Below are positions 24,884-59,000 of a DNA stretch of 64,000 nt, one piece after another (the first letter of the stretch is position 1; the number at the start of each line of letters is the position of its first letter). The stretch comes from Escherichia phage BB1: the sequence record NC_106597.1; one strand, given 5' to 3'. The notes under the pieces are model-generated. The model did no database searches and had not been told where the DNA came from. It saw only the letters and a program-made list of their open reading frames with translations. Made by a program: the position numbers and the translations under genes.

Positions 24884-25036
24884 TGAATGGGATATTTTTA
24901 TAACTGAGTCTGGCACTTGGTGTTATAGGTTTGCCTACAGATTTCCCAGTGTAAGAAAACGGTTGGGATACACGTATAAAATTATCTATACTACTGATAA
25001 TATATGGTTATCATCTGGGGAAGAGGAGAAACAGAT

Positions 25037-49681: not shown

Positions 49682-52600
49682 TTATCTATTCGCTAGTAGA
49701 GAGTTAACTACTATGGTTAGATCTGCAATTTGCTTTTTAAGATCAGATACTTCTGATTCTAGAGCTGTGATCCTGCTATCAGATTCTCTGCTTACCTGTA
49801 CTAACAACCCGGTAATGGCCCCATAATCTACCGAATAGAATCGTTCCTCTCCAACGAGAGGCTCACCGTTTAGGGTGGCACCTGCGAGATCTGTATATTT
49901 TGTAAATCCACTTACAGCCTCCGGTAGCGCTTCCATCACTTCCTGGGCTATAACTCCCGCGTACGGCATACCGTTTTCTTTAAGGGTATATGTATATCCT
50001 TTCATTTTACGGAGAGATTCTGTAGCATTGGGTATCTCTACTATGTTATCTTTTAGATCCCTATCAGAAGCTTGGTTAAATGCGATTGCTTGAGCAGCCC
50101 CATTTACTTGGAGAACACGAGATCCATCAGTATTTTGTTGCGCATAAAATAAGTATCCATCAGTTAATTTACACTCAATAACAGAAGGTCTTCCAGTAGT
50201 ATTACCCCATAATTGAAGTATAGCATCTTTAGCTGCATTTGATGTATTTTCAATTCTAAACTGTCGATTATTTGAACGACGTACAACTATAGCAGTACTA
50301 TCTGCAAAAACTCCACCACCATAATTAGGGGTCCTTATTGAAGTATTACCATCCTCCCCTAAACTTAATGAACTGCCCATCATCTCATTAGCTATAACAA
50401 CAGATTTTCCAGCTCCGGTTTTACCAAAATACCACATTCTAGTATTATTAGCTGTTCTACCTGCTAAATAACCACTTTCAGAAGTATCATCAACACTAGA
50501 TTTTAGGGTTAATGCCTCTCCATTTTTATTTATAAAAAGAGGGACTTTAAAATCAGCATATTGATCCGTAATTATACGATTCCATGCACCTATAGTGCCA
50601 GATTCAATACTTCTCAGATAATATTTATTACCCCTACCGGCTAGTTGAGTAGCATAGTTACCACTAAAACCTATATGTACCCCACCATATACAACATTGT
50701 TTTCAGGACTATTAACTTGACCAGCAATACCATAAAACTTATTGATAGTGTTATGTTGTGTATTCCAGTCTACACCAGTAGAAGATAACATACCTGAAGG
50801 AGCTGAGAAGGTCCCATCCTTATTAAAATTAAAGAATTTATGACTAGCAGAACTAGTCATATCCCTAACAATAATCTGTCCAGCTTCTTCTGTTGCCCTA
50901 AACTCACTTTGTCCTAATATGGTATCAGCACTATTTACTAACTGAGATGTGTATGTATTTTTTGTTACAGCATCGCCTCTAGCAGAAAAACTATTAGCAC
51001 CAACAACACTACCATTAAAAGTAAAAGAAGGTGCAGTAGCAGAAAAGGCGTTACCAGAGTTAAGATTATTAGTTAAAGCAAAATTAGGAGATAATCCCTG
51101 ACGGAAAGGATGATTAGAGTAAAAGCCAGAACCGCCACCAGTAAAGTTCAAGAGGTTGCTAACATTACCCTCAGCATTTCCATCACCCGCATCTGTTACT
51201 CCAAATTTAAATTTAACCCCGTTAGTTCCTAATACATAGTCTTCCGTTGGAACATTTATAACAACCTTTGGGTCTGTCATAATGTTCACAGGAAATGCTT
51301 TATAGTGCACATAAACTGCTATGTGTTGAGCATAGTCCTTGTTACTTCCTTTTATGCATAGAATACCCAACTCATTGGGGTCATACGTTGTGAATACTCC
51401 ATATGCTATACTAGGGCTATCGCTCCAGCCACCACAAGTTACGTAGCCAGAAAAAACATTATTATTCATCTCATGGCCGGCCGATCTACCAGGAGTACGA
51501 ATAGATATAGGTACTGGCATAACCCCATTACCATTAACACCTCCAGTATAAAATATAACTGGATAGTATTTCCCATCAACAGCACCTGAAGGCGCATTAA
51601 TAGTTTGGTAAGTACCTATAAATCCTGTAGTAGGTATACCTAAATTTTGTTGAGTTACAGTAAGATTCCTAACAGCTATAGTATCCGTATTAATCTCATT
51701 TGGTACGAATAGTTGACCATTATGTTTAAAATGGAATGTTTTATAAGATGGGCCAGTATCTTCTCCCATAATCTGCAGAGTTGCAGCAGCAGTACCATCA
51801 GAAAGTTTTTCAGGGTATAAGCGCATACGCGCTCTTTGAGTACCATTCACAGCTCTTAAGTAACTATTAATAATACCTCCAGCAGCTGCCGTACTATCAC
51901 TATATCCAGTTAATGATAGACCAGCAAATAATGGTGCATGCTGGGAACCTAGCTCAATAAGCTGTCTACAGTAGCTAGGATCGTAACTATTAAGGATAGA
52001 TCCCCAGGCAGACCATGTTGAGGTACCTGGGTTATAACTACGTTCGTATATCCTATTAGTACTAAAGGTAATGTATATCTGACAACATCCAGCAACCCCA
52101 TTAGCACTATTTTGTAGTACCATTAAGTTTCCCGCTTCTTGAATAGGATAATTACGGGCTATAGTTGCATTAGCAGATAGATTCTGGTAATAGAAACCTG
52201 CAGACTCACCCGTAAGATCATTCAAGTTCTGATCTGTTAAGGTAGAAAATCTACGATACATTACTTCCAGATTTCTACGTGCGTCAGAAGTATTAAGAGC
52301 ACCAGTGCCGCCCTGAGCTATTGCGAGAGGTTGCCACCTACTAGTTGTAGGATTAAATGCTCCCCACTGACCACCAGCATCAACCTGTAAGTAACAGCCA
52401 TCCGACTGAATATCTGTTGAACAAACGATGGTTCTTGTATCACTGGAACGTTGGAAGCGGTTTAGCTGTAGATTAGTTCTCGCTTCAGCAGCTGATCTAC
52501 CTCCGGTACCACCCTGTCCTACTGCAAGAGGTATGTATGTCCTATTCTCTATATCATAAGCTCCCCAGAGTTTATTGGAAGTAATAATTATTTTTGCACC

Positions 52601-53584
52601 TTCATTAGGGTTTAATAGTTGAGTTTCAGAATTTAGTTGGACGAGCTTATCAACCTCATTCTTACGTGCATGACGTGTCCACTGCGGGCCAGTAGATGTA
52701 CTCCAACGATAGGTGTATAATGAGCGAGACGCCCATCCTTGGAAAACACCAGTGTACGCTGGACTACCATCCACTTGACTAATAAACCCTGTAAGACTAC
52801 TCTCACCAGAGGCTATTGATGGGAAGCCTACTGCATTACTCATGATACGCATAAAGCCAATATACGCAGAAGGATTACCAGAAATATCAGGACAATCACG
52901 AGGGGCATTACCTAAACCTATAGAGGCTTTCATGCCGGAAGCTACATTTTCAGCTTTAGTAGCTGAAGCAGCCGCATTAGTTTCCGAAGTTTTAGCATTA
53001 GTTTCTGATACTTTAGCAGCATTAGCACTGTTAGCAGCAGCAGTTTTACTACTATTAGCGTTAGTTTCAGAAGTTTTAGCGGCAGAAGCAGATGCAGCAG
53101 CATTAGTTTCTGAGGTTTTTGCTGCGGAAGCAGATGCAGCAGCAGCAGTTTTGCTACTATTAGCATTGGTCTCAGAAGTTTTAGCCGCTGTTTCACTAGC
53201 TTTTGCATTGGTTTCTGAAGTTTTTGCAGCCGTCTCACTAGCTTTTGCGTTAGTCTCAGAAGTCTTAGCAGCTTTAGCGCTATTAGCAGAAGTAGTAGCA
53301 GAAGAGGCAGACTGAGTTGCAGATTGCTGGGAAGATGCTGCGGAAATTTCTGCTTCATTCTCAGAGTCTTTAGCGTTTAGCTCTGACTGTTTAGCATTAA
53401 TCTCTGATTGTTTAGCTGCTGCAGCAGAAGCTTTAGAGGATTCTATAGCAGTAGTTAGTTCTCCTGCCGTAATAGAGCTAATGGAATTAGAAAGCACAAC
53501 TGTATACTTAGGATACTTACTTGCAGTTATGCTATTCTGGTCCATAATGACCATTTGCTGTAAAATTATTTTAGTTATAGCCAT
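49682..53584 (-). CDS. ltf: L-shaped tail fibre protein with C-terminal intramolecular chaperone domain
   Basis: 1300 aa; N-terminal AKTSETNA repeats; C-terminal SDRDLKDNIVEI...GYTYTLKENG chaperone-type domain. Confidence 0.85.
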   Translation of the reverse strand: MAITKIILQQMVIMDQNSITASKYPKYTVVLSNSISSITAGELTTAIESSKASAAAAKQSEINAKQSELNAKDSENEAEISAASSQQSATQSASSATTSANSAKAAKTSETNAKASETAAKTSETNAKASETAAKTSETNANSSKTAAAASASAAKTSETNAAASASAAKTSETNANSSKTAAANSANAAKVSETNAKTSETNAAASATKAENVASGMKASIGLGNAPRDCPDISGNPSAYIGFMRIMSNAVGFPSIASGESSLTGFISQVDGSPAYTGVFQGWASRSLYTYRWSTSTGPQWTRHARKNEVDKLVQLNSETQLLNPNEGAKIIITSNKLWGAYDIENRTYIPLAVGQGGTGGRSAAEARTNLQLNRFQRSSDTRTIVCSTDIQSDGCYLQVDAGGQWGAFNPTTSRWQPLAIAQGGTGALNTSDARRNLEVMYRRFSTLTDQNLNDLTGESAGFYYQNLSANATIARNYPIQEAGNLMVLQNSANGVAGCCQIYITFSTNRIYERSYNPGTSTWSAWGSILNSYDPSYCRQLIELGSQHAPLFAGLSLTGYSDSTAAAGGIINSYLRAVNGTQRARMRLYPEKLSDGTAAATLQIMGEDTGPSYKTFHFKHNGQLFVPNEINTDTIAVRNLTVTQQNLGIPTTGFIGTYQTINAPSGAVDGKYYPVIFYTGGVNGNGVMPVPISIRTPGRSAGHEMNNNVFSGYVTCGGWSDSPSIAYGVFTTYDPNELGILCIKGSNKDYAQHIAVYVHYKAFPVNIMTDPKVVINVPTEDYVLGTNGVKFKFGVTDAGDGNAEGNVSNLLNFTGGGSGFYSNHPFRQGLSPNFALTNNLNSGNAFSATAPSFTFNGSVVGANSFSARGDAVTKNTYTSQLVNSADTILGQSEFRATEEAGQIIVRDMTSSASHKFFNFNKDGTFSAPSGMLSSTGVDWNTQHNTINKFYGIAGQVNSPENNVVYGGVHIGFSGNYATQLAGRGNKYYLRSIESGTIGAWNRIITDQYADFKVPLFINKNGEALTLKSSVDDTSESGYLAGRTANNTRMWYFGKTGAGKSVVIANEMMGSSLSLGEDGNTSIRTPNYGGGVFADSTAIVVRRSNNRQFRIENTSNAAKDAILQLWGNTTGRPSVIECKLTDGYLFYAQQNTDGSRVLQVNGAAQAIAFNQASDRDLKDNIVEIPNATESLRKMKGYTYTLKENGMPYAGVIAQEVMEALPEAVSGFTKYTDLAGATLNGEPLVGEERFYSVDYGAITGLLVQVSRESDSRITALESEVSDLKKQIADLTIVVNSLLANR
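52940..53305 (-). repeat. in-frame tandem repeats inside the tail-fibre gene (AKTSETNA/AKASETAA heptad-like units)
   Basis: Repeated tttctgaagtttt/agcagcattag DNA units; produces spurious antisense ORFs 52842-53315 and 52942-53358. Confidence 0.75.
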
Positions 53585-54006
53585 TATTGAGTTACCCCAT
53601 CGCTAATATAAACTTTGCCTTCCATAATACGGAAAGAGCTAGCAGCGCTACCAACAGCTGTTCTAGTAATTATAACATCGTAGTATCCAGCTAACCTTTG
53701 TCTAGGATTATACCTATCTCTTTCTTTAGATGCTTTAGATGCAATAGTAGTTACAGCATTAACAGGTAAACTTATAGATGCTACACCTTGTTTAGCATCT
53801 ATAATAGAAGTGGTAAAGGATGCTAAATTTTCAGCCCCATCCTCTAAACTACTCTTAATACTTCCTCTAAGAGAGAAGCCAGTAAGATCTACTGGCTTAG
53901 ATGTAGCAGGATAAACACTATCATCTACATCCATAAATTGCATAAGTAAACCATAAGGTACGTTTTCGTCTACTACTAAATCAATAACTCTATTTTCTGT
54001 ACTCAT
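53584..54006 (-). CDS. tail collar protein (p132-like), by size and synteny
   Basis: 140 aa, directly upstream of ltf in a T5-like tail cluster; no domain confirmed. Confidence 0.5.
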
Positions 54007-54011
54007 TATTT

Positions 54012-56150
54012 TTACCTTATATGGATATACCCGTTTTGCAGGTCTATCTTCATTTTGTAAGATCCCTCTGGATTAGAGGATAGTGCGGCTGCACGATCAT
54101 ATATAATATTTACACCAATTTGTGATAAGAAAGCGTTATTAGCAACAATTTTACTAGCAGTTACCGTACCATTAACTATCATATCACCATGTAAAACCAT
54201 TGCAGGGCTAGCCCATGCTGAACCATTCCACTGCCTAGTGAATGCTGTTCCTGGTGCCCCACTTTTATACTCGGTTAATACATCATATTTAACAGGACCA
54301 GTACCAAAATTAGATGTAAAAAACGAATTAGCCTGAGAATCATTCCATGCCGTTAAGTTAGCAATAGCAAGAGAATACATTCCAGGACCACGTTGTCCGT
54401 CTGCTCCTGGCCGCCCATCAGCACCTGGTTTTCCATCGGCACCTGGTTTTCCATCAGCACCTGGTAGTCCATCAGCTCCCGGCTTACCATCTACCCCTTC
54501 TGTACCGCTCCATTGAACTACATCTGACCAACTAGTTCCGGATACTAATTGATTAGTAACAGGGTCCAGAGTACCCGTAGAACAGTAAATATTCTGAGTA
54601 TTAGATATTCTATTCGGCGGAGTTTTAGACCAACCAGAAGGTGGGTATGCAGGGCTTGTTGGTTTAGCAGGTAATGAAGTACCTAGAATATAAATAAATA
54701 CTGTTTGCTTACCTTGTATACCTGTTTCTATATCAATATCGCCATTAGGTGTACCAATTACAACTCCACTAGAAATTCTTAATGTATCACCATCGAAACG
54801 AATATATTGCGTAGCATTACCAATATCTACTTTTGGCTTCGCAGTAGCATTATCCATGCCCATCCAAATACCAGATTTTGTATCTCCCCAAGTTTTACCT
54901 TGAGTATAAATTGCTGGGTTGTCTTGACCAGTTAAGTTAGTCATTACAAAGTTCGCAGCATTAATGGTTTTAGTTATTACACTTCCATCAACGTTAATTA
55001 TCTTTTTAATAGGGTCAAAAGATATTGGTGCTTTTCCTTCTGCATCTAGAAGACCTATATTAATAGCACCTGTAGCAGCATCTATTAGGAAGGTTTGTTT
55101 CCAGGTAGATCCATCTTTGATCTTACCCTTAATGTACGCGTAATTTACTTCGATACCAGTTTCATTAACAAAACTATTATCTAATGGAGTACTCTCATTT
55201 AATATAAATGTCTGTACTGCGGAATCAGTAACATCTTGAGCATCTGGTCCCCAGGCAATAGATGACACTTTAAATTTATGCTCTACTTTCCATGGAAATG
55301 ATATAATTGTTGCTGACTGAGCAGCACCCACGTTGATTTTTTGTGCCTTAGTCCATCCAGTTCTAGCAAATTCTGCTGAATCTATATATGATAGAACGAA
55401 TTCACGAACGTTGGCGCCTGTCCCTCTATTCCAATCCCATTGCACACGTAAATCATAGCGTTCTTTACCATCCGCTATACGCGCAGCTTTAAACACAATA
55501 TTAACAGGAGCTGTAGGAGGTACAAAGTTATATCTAACTTCAAAGACAGTAGGATACTCATAGTATCCAGATGAATCAATAGTTACTCCGTCTGGCAGGG
55601 ATACTTGTCCAGAAATTCTTACCTTATAGGATCCGATTGGCACACCACCAAACATAATAGTTGGCATCAACGCACCAACATAATATTTAACCCACGGATT
55701 ATTAGCATTAGAATTATTTTTTAATTCTATAGTACAATAATCAGCTTCTCCTGTAGTATCTATATAAACTATTGGCGCTCCAACACCTACGTCTACAGGC
55801 TCTGATTCACATCTAACACCTGTAATTCTAGGTGCTGACTTCATTTTAAAAGTTTGTTTATCAGATAGATTAATACCTATCTGAGCATTAAGTAGTTCAG
55901 AGTCTATTATAGAATCATAAAATGCACCCTGAACTTCATAAGTTGTTGTAGGTTTTAAGTTATTAATAGTTACAGAAAAGGTATCAACTCCAGTAAAATC
56001 TCTACGAGTAACGTTGCTACCTTCTTTAAGCCAAAAAGATCTACCTATAACGTCATAATCAGAATAGATAGAATGCTGGATATACGCCAACGTATATCCA
56101 GTTAAGACGCTATTTAGAACCATTTTAGCTGGTGCATTATTTGAAATCAT
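54012..56150 (-). CDS. baseplate/central-fibre protein (pb4-like) with collagen-like repeat
   Basis: 712 aa; GKPGADG x5 Gly-X-Y tract; position between hub and collar genes. Confidence 0.6.
54380..54490 (-). repeat. collagen-like Gly-X-Y repeat ([31 protein letters not shown]) coding tract
   Basis: Repeated 15-18-nt DNA unit ccatc(a/g)gcacctggtt. Confidence 0.7.
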
Positions 56151-59000
56151 TTAAATAGTAGCCCAACCAACAGATTGCTCACCATTTTCCCCTTCTGCTC
56201 TAATCCTGAATCGTAGTTTACGATTAATTCCTAAAGCACCAGAGTTTAATAGTGCAAAATCCGCCTTATTATATGTTAATAGATAGTCATAGGTATAGGC
56301 ATCCTCTATCCTAATACTACGAAGCATTCTATCCTGAGAATCATGTATTTCTAGAGTATAATAAATTTCTGGAATTATTTCTTCCTCGGGTATCTTATCC
56401 CAAGCAAGTTTCACGTCTGGTCCAACAAATTCAGTCACGTCTCCAGAAGCTGTATTAGTTACTCTAAAGTTACTAACTACACTTAAGTTTCTAGCAGAGT
56501 TAAGATCCACGGAAAGGGTAACAGGAGAACTACGTCTACCATTAATATCAACAGCACGTAACTCAAAAATAGCTAAACCAGCAGGCTCACCTATAATCTC
56601 CTGAACCATCCTTTCATTAGGATTATTCTCTAATTGCTGAATTATGTAAGGATCTACATGACCTGAATGAGCTATAGAATAATATACTACGTTATTAGTA
56701 AGACTAGGTAGCCAAGATAGTTCCCCATTTTTACCTATAGCACCTATCATACCACCAGGAGTTGGTGTATACTTAAAGTCCCTAGGAGGAAGTACATTAT
56801 TACTAATATCTGGAATATCATTACCACTGTTATCCACTTGATCAGAGTTGATAAATACATCTTCACCATACTCTTGTAGTGTTAAGTTAATCTTACCATC
56901 ACGAGTATTTTCTACTTCATCTACTAGGAAGAACTTATCCTTCCACCCATAACGCTCATAAGTAAAAGCAATCGGATCATTTGGCTCTATACCAATAAAC
57001 TTATAAGGTACTGAGAAGCTAAGTGTACGTGAGTATCTAGATTTTTTAAGTTCCCTATCTGCATAACTACGAGCAGTGTAGTAGTTAGTAATATTTGCAA
57101 AAGATAGCTGAAGTTTTTTATCCAAACCCTTATCTTGTTCTTTAAACTTAGAGTTATAGAATGTAATAGAGTTTGTTTTCCAACTTAGCGCAGGATCTAC
57201 TAGGGATGCTTGTACTGAGTTAAACTTATTTCTACCAGTAGTATCAGATAAGTCTAAGTCCCCGTAAGTATCTAGAAAACCTATCTTCAAAGGAGTTGTA
57301 GAATGCTTCTCTACAGTTATTCTATACTCACCAGATAAGTTATTTATAGCTCCGCCAAAAGAATCCAGTACTCCTTGAACATTTTTAAATACTGATTCGG
57401 AGGTATCTAATATAGTGTTTAACTGAACTACTTGGCGATGTTCAGAAATAGAATCACTCCAACCAACATATCTCCAATAGGGTTGCCAGCTAATCTGATA
57501 AGATTCATCAATTATATCTAGAATTTTTGCTTCTGATATAATCTTTTGTAGCGGGAACTGATCCAGAGTTATATTAGCCCCATAACGTTCAGAGGTTAGA
57601 TAGTCCATGAGCTGCCAGATACCGTTAAGGCTAGTTTTATCAGCTTTAACAGACCCATCAGAGCTATATACTTTGACTTTCTTACCTTGTACTTCAGCAC
57701 TAATTTCTGGAATTTCAGTTCTATTCTCATTAATAGTAAATCTAACTACAGCGTAGGCTGTGTCTAAGAGCTTATAACGAGAATCCCAGTATTCTGGGCC
57801 ATTGCCATTTTGATTTTGTAAATAGAAACCCTTTCTTTTAGCGATATCCACTAATACTTGAGCTGCTGTCTGATCTGGTTTGCCATGAAAAGTCCATATT
57901 CTTATGTCACCATTACCATCATTATACTTATACTCCTGACCATGAACAGAAGGTTGAGAAGTGCTTGTACCAGCAGCTAGTCTATGCATTGTATCACCTA
58001 CTAGTTTCTTACGACCGAAGCAGGTTCTAGTATTGGAATCTGCTTCATCGAAACAGATCATTGGGCTGTCCCCAATATAGAAATCTAGGAATCCATCAAT
58101 TTCTCCTTCCGAAAAAGCATAGACTACATACACTATATTAGGGTTATTTAGCTCAGTATCTGCAAAAATAGGGATACCAGGGATTTTCTGAACCCCATAT
58201 ACAACAGGTATAAATTTAGCAGCTAAGTTAAAGTCTAAATCAACTTCTTTAGTTACAGTCTCATAATACTTTTTAAGACTGTAACTTCTTGATAGCCCAA
58301 AAAGTTTCTTCTTGGACTGAAGTTTATAACGCTCTTCTTTTACTTGATATTTAGCTAATATAGTGGTACTTTTATTAGAGTGGAAGAAGCCATAGTCTTC
58401 TTGGTACTCAGGACGTTTAGCACCATTAGAAGGTTGTAATTGTCCATTAACAACTTCAAGCCCTCGGTGGGAAGCATCATCGGTATAACGACCGTTCACT
58501 CTATCAAAATCATAGAACTGATTAGAACAGTTCCATGTTATAACAGAGGTTCCTATACCGGAAGTACTAACGTTGTCCTTTATTCCGCCGCCAGTAATTT
58601 TACCACGAAAGAATAGTAAAGGTCCATTAGTATCAGGATCTACAGGAAGAATATTACCTTCTTCATCAATTATAGCTTGATGTATAGTGATAGTTCTATC
58701 TAAGAAAGATACTCCATTTTGAACTAGTTTTAATACTTCATCTTCTGCTGTACCAGTTATGGTAAAAGATAGACTACCAATAGATAGTTCACGGTTTTGC
58801 TTATGGGAGCCGATACTTTTTACTTTACCAGATCTATATAAGATTCCATTATAGGTAACATCTCTAAAGTAGTCAGTTAAATAAACATAAGTAGCAGCAG
58901 AGCCTGATGAACTAGGAAGCTCTAAAGCTATAAGACAAGCTGTTTTTAGCTTGTCATGAGTATTAAGATATGTTTTAGCACTATCGAGTATCTGCTTCAT
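56151..59000 (-). CDS. baseplate hub / tail tip protein (pb3-like)
   Basis: 949 aa protein between Dit and pb4-like genes; assignment by size and synteny. Confidence 0.6.
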   Translation of the reverse strand: MKQILDSAKTYLNTHDKLKTACLIALELPSSSGSAATYVYLTDYFRDVTYNGILYRSGKVKSIGSHKQNRELSIGSLSFTITGTAEDEVLKLVQNGVSFLDRTITIHQAIIDEEGNILPVDPDTNGPLLFFRGKITGGGIKDNVSTSGIGTSVITWNCSNQFYDFDRVNGRYTDDASHRGLEVVNGQLQPSNGAKRPEYQEDYGFFHSNKSTTILAKYQVKEERYKLQSKKKLFGLSRSYSLKKYYETVTKEVDLDFNLAAKFIPVVYGVQKIPGIPIFADTELNNPNIVYVVYAFSEGEIDGFLDFYIGDSPMICFDEADSNTRTCFGRKKLVGDTMHRLAAGTSTSQPSVHGQEYKYNDGNGDIRIWTFHGKPDQTAAQVLVDIAKRKGFYLQNQNGNGPEYWDSRYKLLDTAYAVVRFTINENRTEIPEISAEVQGKKVKVYSSDGSVKADKTSLNGIWQLMDYLTSERYGANITLDQFPLQKIISEAKILDIIDESYQISWQPYWRYVGWSDSISEHRQVVQLNTILDTSESVFKNVQGVLDSFGGAINNLSGEYRITVEKHSTTPLKIGFLDTYGDLDLSDTTGRNKFNSVQASLVDPALSWKTNSITFYNSKFKEQDKGLDKKLQLSFANITNYYTARSYADRELKKSRYSRTLSFSVPYKFIGIEPNDPIAFTYERYGWKDKFFLVDEVENTRDGKINLTLQEYGEDVFINSDQVDNSGNDIPDISNNVLPPRDFKYTPTPGGMIGAIGKNGELSWLPSLTNNVVYYSIAHSGHVDPYIIQQLENNPNERMVQEIIGEPAGLAIFELRAVDINGRRSSPVTLSVDLNSARNLSVVSNFRVTNTASGDVTEFVGPDVKLAWDKIPEEEIIPEIYYTLEIHDSQDRMLRSIRIEDAYTYDYLLTYNKADFALLNSGALGINRKLRFRIRAEGENGEQSVGWATI

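Follow-up and report, generated by a model that had tools for sequence, protein, structure and literature searches.

We analyzed a 64,000-nucleotide (nt) stretch of DNA from Escherichia phage BB1 (NC_106597.1; hereafter, the window) and focused on two repetitive tracts in its tail genes, namely the repeats at the start of pb1, the L-shaped (lateral) tail fibre gene, and the run of Gly-X-Y triplets in pb4, which encodes the central straight fibre protein. The results suggested that both tracts are probably structural periodicities that tolerate changes in length, drift by whole units over evolutionary time and lie at module boundaries, with host specificity residing in distal pb1 and pb5. In the proposed mechanism, the 21-nt repeats of pb1, each encoding seven amino acids (aa), would form a continuous helix of about 182 residues, and this helix would trimerise into a proximal shaft joining the collar-anchored N-terminus to the distal, exchangeable receptor-binding part. 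In pb4, the 14 triplets would act as a spacer, the extended linker 2, that separates two small decoration domains; these domains would protrude from the beta-helical spike in the loop joining strands 15 and 16. The tracts would change length by gaining or losing complete units, which measure 18 nt in pb4 and multiples of 21 nt in pb1; short direct repeats that slip during replication or recombine unequally are the most likely source. Each tract would also lie where a conserved module for virion attachment meets one that is variable or open to insertion. The C-terminal chaperone would cleave itself off at Ser1173 and unmask distal pb1, and host specificity, residing in distal pb1 and pb5, would not depend on the repeat number.

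Heptad Repeats of the pb1 Shaft

The original prediction, made from the DNA alone, had described in-frame tandem repeats in the N-terminal region of the fibre. These repeats were recovered by Tandem Repeats Finder as in-frame arrays with periods of 21, 42 and 105 nt between positions 52974 and 53416. At the protein level, they corresponded to 26 heptads (aa 40–221; Table 1) that followed one another without a stutter. The residue autocorrelation was 0.49, 0.51, 0.46 and 0.42 at lags of 7, 14, 21 and 28, respectively, and 0.08–0.20 at lags that were not multiples of seven. The DNA copies were 61–79% identical to each other.

It was observed that aa 4–215 of pb1 matched LtfA of phage DT57C (PDB 8HQZ, chain d) with an E-value of 1.3e-35, and that aa 1–247 were 65.6% identical to T5 pb1. 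AlphaFold2 modelling of the first 260 residues yielded a single unbroken helix from residue 40 to 221, with predicted local distance difference test (pLDDT) scores of 90–98. A previous study reported that the DT57C LtfA residues before T40 form beta-strands threading into the LtfC ring, and that a long helix starting from T40 enters a three-helix coiled coil directed away from the tail (PMC10713586). Because of the LtfA match, the DT57C structure and the AlphaFold2 helix, the pb1 repeats are predicted to encode a coiled-coil proximal fibre shaft. As in the resolved part of DT57C LtfA, this shaft may be a trimer, and it may remain so over its full length. The window pb1 also displayed the features of a T5-type lateral fibre, including a docking N-terminus, a helix from about residue 40 and an LtfC gene immediately upstream.

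Two further open reading frames (ORFs) were present inside the heptad DNA, at 52842–53315 on the plus strand (157 aa) and at 52942–53358 on the minus strand in another frame (138 aa). Their products were Leu/Ala/Lys-rich low-complexity strings, and both ORFs were dismissed as genes, being almost certainly by-products of the low-complexity repeat.

The Gly-X-Y Tract of pb4

To place the second tract, we consider the protein that contains it. Pfam analysis of the 712-aa protein detected PB4_spike (E-value of 3.8e-192) and three PB4 Fn3 domains; the scores for PF24169, PF24170, PF24171 and PF24168 were 140, 135.5, 211.3 and 637.7 bits, respectively, against a cutoff of 27. T5 pb4 in the PDB (7ZLV/7ZN2/7ZN4/7ZQB) matched the window protein at 1507.7 bits, and the top Foldseek matches were 8HRE (DT57C pb4) and 7ZN2 (T5 pb4). 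The gene was flanked by those for the pb3 hub and the LtfC/p132 collar protein, as the family would lead one to expect. A Gly-X-Y collagen-like tract had been claimed for this protein, and direct reading bore this out with 14 triplets, which extended 16 nt past position 54490, where the tract had been taken to end. With 8.5% Gly elsewhere in pb4, the chance expectation for 14 in-phase glycines was about 7e-13. Tandem Repeats Finder reported an 18-nt period with 4.3 copies at 54415–54491 (83% matches). A separate repeat-family search (seed 10) returned no family in the collagen region, although Tandem Repeats Finder and direct reading both showed 18-nt units there.

The AlphaFold2 model of pb4, a monomer built from 40 homologues, gave pLDDT values below 50 over residues 552–586, between two well-folded small domains. 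The upstream domain (482–548) comprised strands at 482–490, 520–529 and 545–548 (pLDDT 81–91), and the downstream domain (591–641) comprised strands at 591–596, 624–629 and 632–641 and a helix at 604–615 (pLDDT 77–91). The structural study of T5 pb4 described two small globular decoration domains and assigned residues 548–566 to linker 2 and residues 567–618 to domain 2 (PMC10038345). Residues 549–566 of T5 pb4 are its six Gly-X-Y triplets. In T5, the decoration domains are invisible before receptor binding owing to the flexibility of the linkers, and the FNIII strings act as a clamp after FhuA binding (PMC10038345). The number of modelled residues, 527 in the pre-receptor structure 7ZLV versus 671 in the post-receptor structure 7ZN2, agrees with a decoration arm that is mobile until clamped by the FNIII strings. 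Because of the position of linker 2 in T5, the AlphaFold2 model and the structure coverage, the pb4 tract appears to be a spacer within an arm at the side of the spike, off the fibre axis. The original prediction had also proposed that the length of the tract could alter fibre length; for pb4, the off-axis position in the T5 structure speaks against this proposal, as such a segment should not set the length of the fibre.

Length Variation among Related Phages

The number of pb4 triplets was determined by direct reading in selected relatives. T5 contained 6 triplets, slur09 and Kenya-K18 contained 8, FGS029 and ESCO30 contained 10, Bf23 and phiP4 contained 12, and the window, PS3-1, Kenya-K20 and LmqsSP1 contained 14, and the flanks of the tract were identical across the directly read T5-clade phages. 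Relatives carried 5, 6, 8, 10, 12 or 14 triplets, and the sequenced T5-clade genes were 90–98% identical outside the tract. The alignment spans of more than 60 phage records fell into classes of 354, 372, 390, 408 and 426 nt, which represent the same series, and each step in the T5-clade series corresponded to one 18-nt GADG(K/R)P unit. Among 71 database homologues, the family ranged from 4 to 16 triplets. In a sister clade, the tract (GTEGTIGHDGQRGPG) had no internal DNA repeat, and all 14 sampled loci carried 5 triplets.

The repeated units differed between the 14-triplet alleles, which points to independent duplications as their probable origin. The PS3-1 tract contained three perfect GGAAAACCAGGTGCTGAT copies, the Kenya-K20 tract contained two perfect copies of each of two units, and the window tract contained two 18-nt copies differing by 1 nt. 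The successive units read K-L-K-K-R in the window, R-K-K-K-R in PS3-1 and LmqsSP1, and R-R-K-K-R in Kenya-K20. An assembly artefact was rejected as the source of the repeat counts, since 14 triplets also occurred in the independent genomes of PS3-1, Kenya-K20 and LmqsSP1. Our literature search for a collagen tract in T5 pb4 retrieved only a 2026 paper on giant orthologues and an unrelated paper on pb10. Not described in the literature searched, and thus a small descriptive advance, are the stepwise series of 6–14 triplets in linker 2 and the fact that it falls where the giant orthologues have their insertions.

For the pb1 coil, IMG/VR relatives were collected via LtfC; searching proteins with the N-terminal 254 aa of pb1 mainly returned low-complexity coil matches to unrelated fibres of about 410–430 aa. 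Coil lengths were compared by alignment of eleven fibres. The coil was of identical length in the window, FGS029, ESCO30, Kenya-K20, PS3-1, slur09 and NBSal005, that is, in seven of the eight phages with this fibre type, and the DNA identity of the fibre block was about 86–91% among the six phages with a full-length match. SP01 shared the post-coil junction and had a coil longer by 77 and 14 residues. Relative to the window, the T5 coil showed differences of −7, −7 and +7 residues, and the coils of Sugarland and VEc33 were different or much longer. Insertions and deletions in the coil were multiples of seven residues and kept the heptad register, with the exception of one 3-residue gap in Kenya-K18, at which the Kenya-K18 fibre diverged from the other fibres.

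Both tracts had been predicted to be prone to slipped-strand expansion or contraction, a claim that an invariant repeat number across relatives would have undermined. Such invariance was not found between species, where the pb4 and pb1 tracts both varied, and the whole-unit differences are what slippage or unequal recombination would produce. This part of the claim was supported, whereas near-identical isolates kept the same number and exact repeats did not exceed 18 nt. A single triplet number was found within each of four groups of records: five T5 records, five Kenya isolates, SE8/SE11 and HASG4/EASG3. Among the 11 genes compared, both pairs with at least 98% identity shared their triplet number (window/PS3-1, with identity taken over the gene outside the tract, and PS3-1/Kenya-K20, taken over 300 nt on either side of the tract), and the number differed only at about 3% or more nucleotide divergence. 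The longest exact DNA repeats were 17 nt in pb4 and 18 nt in pb1, in contrast to the long perfect repeats of contingency loci. Because near-identical isolates shared their numbers, seven of the eight phages with this fibre type had the same coil length and the repeats were short and imperfect, the comparison indicates that length probably varies on an evolutionary timescale rather than in a hypermutable tract.

The opposite view is that the tracts are hypermutable contingency sites, at which frequent slipped-strand change within a population alters the length or flexibility of the fibre and hence the host range. Although the whole-unit copy-number differences between related phages and the near-perfect 18-nt tandem copies in the pb4 tract are compatible with such sites, we consider this view very improbable. 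It is at odds with the identical numbers in near-identical isolates and in the five T5 records, with the equal coil length in seven of eight phages despite the divergence of their fibre DNA, and with the shortness and imperfection of the repeats. It also conflicts with the off-axis position of the pb4 tract in T5 and with the lack of a host-genus pattern across the classes of 6–12 triplets. On/off phase variation was rejected as well, since all repeat units are multiples of 3 nt and permit no such switching.

The proposal that the repeat number is a source of host-range variation was not supported. The classes of 6, 8, 10 and 12 triplets each contained Escherichia and Salmonella phages, and the three 14-triplet records were all from Salmonella phages. 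The study that solved the T5 structure states that pb4 is not directly involved in recognizing the host (PMC10038345). For phage therapy and engineering, the determinants of host range should be sought in the distal two-thirds of pb1 and in pb5, not in the repeat tracts. The practical value of the present results lies in the correct annotation of the adsorption apparatus of T5-like phages, and the current understanding of T5 infection is unchanged by them.

Exchange of the Distal Fibre

In our alignment, pb1 showed no similarity to T5 pb1 after aa 247, and its distal part was about 90% identical at the nucleotide level to that of FGS029, ESCO30 and Kenya-K20. The crystal structures of T5 pb1 (4UW7 and 4UW8) did not match the window pb1 because the distal part is a different allele. 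The PHROG matches along pb1 were mosaic, with families 5481/24369 on the N-terminus and family 6578 on aa 375–1299. Based on BLAST coverage, homology to other phages stopped at aa ~162, 197, 246 or 311, inside the coil or shortly beyond it, and the SE11 fibre diverged within the coil. The post-coil junction IGLG.APRDCPDISGNPS.YIGFMRIMSNA.GFPSIASG, together with the coil motif, was also present in an E. coli prophage fibre (P0080), a side-tail-fibre-like protein with a lambdoid-type N-terminal domain. Because the distal allele differs, homology breaks off at these points, the junction is shared with a prophage and the PHROG matches are mosaic, the pb1 coil appears to act as a hinge that joins the conserved anchor to a distal part open to exchange.

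These observations also raise the question of whether the repeats are mainly recombinational, so that shared low-complexity homology lets distal modules be swapped or inserted and the variation in length is a by-product. The breakpoints relative to other Tequintavirus fibres at aa ~162, 197 and 246, the divergence of SE11 inside the coil, the SETNAK-type coil and post-coil junction in Stf-like fibres of E. coli prophages and the several PHROG families along pb1 all favour such a role. In pb4, the orthologues keep aa 1–561 and 580–712 and carry unrelated insertions exactly at the tract, which points in the same direction. The breakpoints were read from BLAST coverage rather than from a formal recombination test, and those at aa 246 and 311 fall outside the repeats. 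We regard a mainly recombinational role as quite possible, though somewhat less probable than its converse; it is compatible with the structural explanation, so that the two are complementary and not exclusive.

Segments of the distal fibre and its S74 end (49682–52920) were about 79% identical to fibres of E. coli prophages (H176–H187), which were annotated as 'prophage tail fiber N-terminal domain-containing protein' and 'pyocin knob domain-containing S74 family peptidase'. Of 5426 complete E. coli genomes, 1186 contained parts of the distal fibre. The shared prophage segments are evidence that virulent T5-like phages and temperate phages have exchanged fibre modules. The side tail fibres of lambdoid E. 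coli prophages (PF08400) resembled the window fibre in the SETNAK-type coil, the post-coil junction and the S74 chaperone end; they differed in having another virion-attachment N-terminus, and only 16–18% of the distal pb1 DNA was matched, at about 79% identity.

Within the distal fibre, the motif QGGTG..(S/T)..(E/D)AR.NL occurred twice at about 52250–52480 of the window, in aa ~368–394 (IPLAVGQGGTGGRSAAEARTNLQL) and aa ~418–444 (QPLAIAQGGTGALNTSDARRNLEV). The second copy gave a weak HMMER alignment to residues 444–472 of DT57C LtfA, and the motif recurs in fibres.

C-Terminal Chaperone of pb1

The fibre had been described as ending in a self-cleaving chaperone-type domain. The presence of the domain was confirmed by the Peptidase_S74 family (PF13884), which matched aa 1173–1224 with an E-value of 1.3e-13 and a score of 51.4 bits against a cutoff of 22, and by the dyad Ser1173/Lys1178; the cleavage itself is predicted. 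The motif SDRDLK at the start of the domain aligned with SDARLK in T5, where Ser1264 and Lys1269 have the same spacing. These two T5 residues have been highlighted at the cleavage site (PMC4690869). On the basis of this alignment, cleavage of the window fibre is predicted immediately before Ser1173 (codon 50066–50068). The chaperone region also showed a weak match to the MYRF auto-processing domain (7DC3).

The pb4 Tract as an Insertion Site and the Possibility of a Collagen Rod

Two larger pb4 orthologues, P0046 (1037 aa) and P0064 (1108 aa), aligned to window pb4 over residues 1–561/570 and then from residue 580/583 to the C-terminus. Their extra 350–410 residues fell exactly at the tract as modules composed of a domain and a Gly-X-Y run. 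P0064 contained seven Gly-X-Y tracts, which were spaced at intervals of about 70 aa and separated by domains of about 60 aa, and modules resembling decoration domain 1 were repeated in P0046. These modules suggest that amplification can turn the decoration arm into a long appendage with a beaded form. The PHROG profile of the pb4 family comprises 3453 positions, and its alignment to window pb4 broke at position 562. A recent study described pb4 orthologues of about 3450 aa, in which beta-domains are joined by collagen triple helices modelled with AlphaFold3 (PMC13611949, 2026). The tract is thus a site in the T5 central fibre that tolerates insertions and might serve for display or engineering.

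Instead of a flexible spacer, the 14-triplet tract could be a genuine collagen triple helix, in which the three pb4 chains join as a short, rigid rod some 12 nm long and thereby push the decoration domains outward or shift their position. The (GXY)14 run is uninterrupted, has Pro in 7 of its 14 triplets and contains Lys/Arg-Asp pairs; the adjoining trimeric spike could nucleate a helix, and the tract resembles the Scl2/SclB and 'collagen like minor tail' profiles. We consider such a rod unlikely. In T5, the segment is a side linker in each subunit, with both ends tied to domains that return to the same beta-helix, and three parallel chains would have to converge off the axis. Relatives work with 4–6 triplets, which are too few for a stable helix, and the score for Pfam Collagen (PF01391) was 26.7 bits, marginally under the gathering cutoff of 27.2. 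Collagen-like phage and prophage fibres and bacterial collagens (PF01391; Scl2/SclB NF038329; PHROG 1806) share with the window the uninterrupted Gly-X-Y run adjoining a trimeric domain and the unit-wise length polymorphism. The window tract is much shorter than bona fide bacterial collagens, the profile scores stayed under curated cutoffs (in addition to that for PF01391, 23.7 versus 325 bits), and the T5 segment is a side linker rather than an axial rod.

Several points weigh against our interpretation of the two tracts as slowly drifting structural spacers. The perfect copies in PS3-1 and the near-perfect copies in the window are real substrates for slippage, and low-frequency length variants within one phage stock may exist, as they would be compatible with a comparison made at the genome level. 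The T5 figure legend is partly garbled, giving 548–566 for both domain 1 and linker 2 in the journal version and the preprint, so that the assignment of linker 2 rests on the legend together with our AlphaFold2 model. Finally, the run of 42 Gly-X-Y residues is rich in Pro and Lys/Arg-Asp pairs, and three such chains in the trimer could wind into a collagen triple helix, as the AlphaFold3 models of the giant orthologues show for their own collagen segments (PMC13611949).

A more speculative reading, which we regard as quite improbable, is that the length of the pb4 linker is a selected, tunable tether; it draws on the series of 6–14 triplets and on the acceptance of hundreds to thousands of residues at this site in the larger orthologues. 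If so, the length of the tether would adjust how far the decoration domains reach into surface polysaccharide or how easily infection is triggered; once the receptor is bound, the central fibre bends and the FNIII strings clamp these domains. A tether of this kind would give T5-like phages a second level of host adaptation that has gone unrecognised, and its long alleles might possibly form a true collagen triple helix.

Gene Block and Comparison with T5-Like Phages

The window belongs to a T5-like phage (Tequintavirus), and the region is the standard gene block of the lateral and central fibres. This assignment follows from the identity of the upstream DNA at 25000–49600 to several Tequintavirus genomes (96–97%), from the Pfam assignments and from the gene order. 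Four co-oriented ORFs of 1300, 140, 712 and 949 aa were found on the minus strand (Table 1), and the interval singled out by the original prediction takes in the pb1 and LtfC genes and the 3' end of pb4. The genes followed in the order pb3, pb4, LtfC and pb1, and then came the genes for dUTPase and flap endonuclease in the opposite orientation; the same order was observed in T5 and nine further annotated relatives, PS3-1 and slur09 among them. The 949-aa pb3 ORF gave a weak Pfam match to Phage-tail_3. The 140-aa LtfC protein matched PHROG 34807, labelled 'collar tail protein for L-shaped tail fibre attachment', and neither pb1 nor LtfC is represented by a model in NCBIfam. Pfam, PDB and PHROG matches agreed with the original prediction in its naming of an L-shaped tail fibre, a pb4-like protein and a chaperone domain of the self-cleaving type. 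The genes, structures and chaperone of this block are already well known.

Table 1. Coordinates of the fibre gene block and of the features within it, numbered along the window.
Feature	Position	Strand	Evidence or remark
pb1 / L-shaped (lateral) tail fibre gene, 1300 aa	49682..53584	-	ORF, PDB, T5 alignment, PHROG, gene order
pb1 aa 1–39, collar-anchoring N-terminus	53468..53584	-	nearly identical across T5-clade phages
pb1 aa 40–221, 26 uninterrupted heptads [E/A][T/I/L]xA[K/A]xS	52922..53467	-	predicted trimeric alpha-helical coiled-coil proximal shaft
pb1 aa 222–1172, distal fibre, likeliest receptor-binding region	50069..52921	-	allele other than T5
pb1 aa 1173–1300 and stop codon, intramolecular chaperone / Peptidase_S74	49682..50068	-	PF13884; Ser/Lys dyad
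LtfC / p132 collar protein, 140 aa	53584..54006	-	Pfam PF23926, E 1.5e-15; PHROG 34807
pb4 central straight fibre protein, 712 aa	54012..56150	-	Pfam, PDB, Foldseek
pb4 aa 482–548, small folded Pro-rich domain upstream of the tract (spike decoration domain 1)	54507..54707	-	AlphaFold2
pb4 aa 549–590, 14 Gly-X-Y triplets, equivalent to T5 'linker 2'	54381..54506	-	direct reading; Tandem Repeats Finder
pb4 aa 591–641, spike decoration domain 2, a small folded domain C-terminal to the tract	54228..54380	-	AlphaFold2
pb3 baseplate hub protein, 949 aa (context)	56151..59000	-	length and position as in T5 pb3

The window pb4 was about 93% identical in amino acid sequence to T5 pb4 (Linares et al. 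2023, PMC10038345), and the two proteins have in common three FNIII domains, a beta-helical spike, two decoration domains, the position in the genome and identical tract flanks (...QWSG upstream). They differ in that T5 has 6 triplets and the window has 14, a surplus of 24 residues that equals four additional GADG(K/R)P units. Fourteen triplets were shared with the Salmonella phages PS3-1, Kenya-K20 and LmqsSP1 (Tequintavirus); the PS3-1 pb4 was 99.2% identical to that of the window, and the PS3-1 fibre was a different, shorter allele of 1215 aa. With T5 pb1 and DT57C LtfA (8HQZ, 4UW7/4UW8; PMC10713586, PMC4690869), the window fibre shared the collar-binding N-terminus, the helix from residue 40, a heptad coil of similar length, the C-terminal S74-type chaperone with its Ser/Lys dyad and the upstream LtfC/p132 gene. 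Residues 248–1172 were unrelated to the polymannose-binding part of T5 pb1, and the fibre type was that of the Salmonella and Escherichia phages FGS029, ESCO30 and Kenya-K20. DT57C has a branched LtfA/LtfB pair, whereas the window has a single fibre gene.

T5-type pb4 or pb1 was also found in records assigned to hosts outside the T5 range, including OR849419 ('Listeria phage LM 4-14-1'), P0072 ('Enterococcus faecalis') and one 'Campylobacter' record. These records are probably contaminant or mislabelled contigs because T5-like phages do not infect those hosts. In the T5 record AY543070 (8572–8996 of the sampled locus), the collar gene was split into two small ORFs, T5.135 and T5.136, unlike the single 140-aa LtfC ORF of the window and of all other relatives. 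A table footnote in the DT57C paper ascribes the split T5 collar ORFs to a frameshift error in the T5 sequence.

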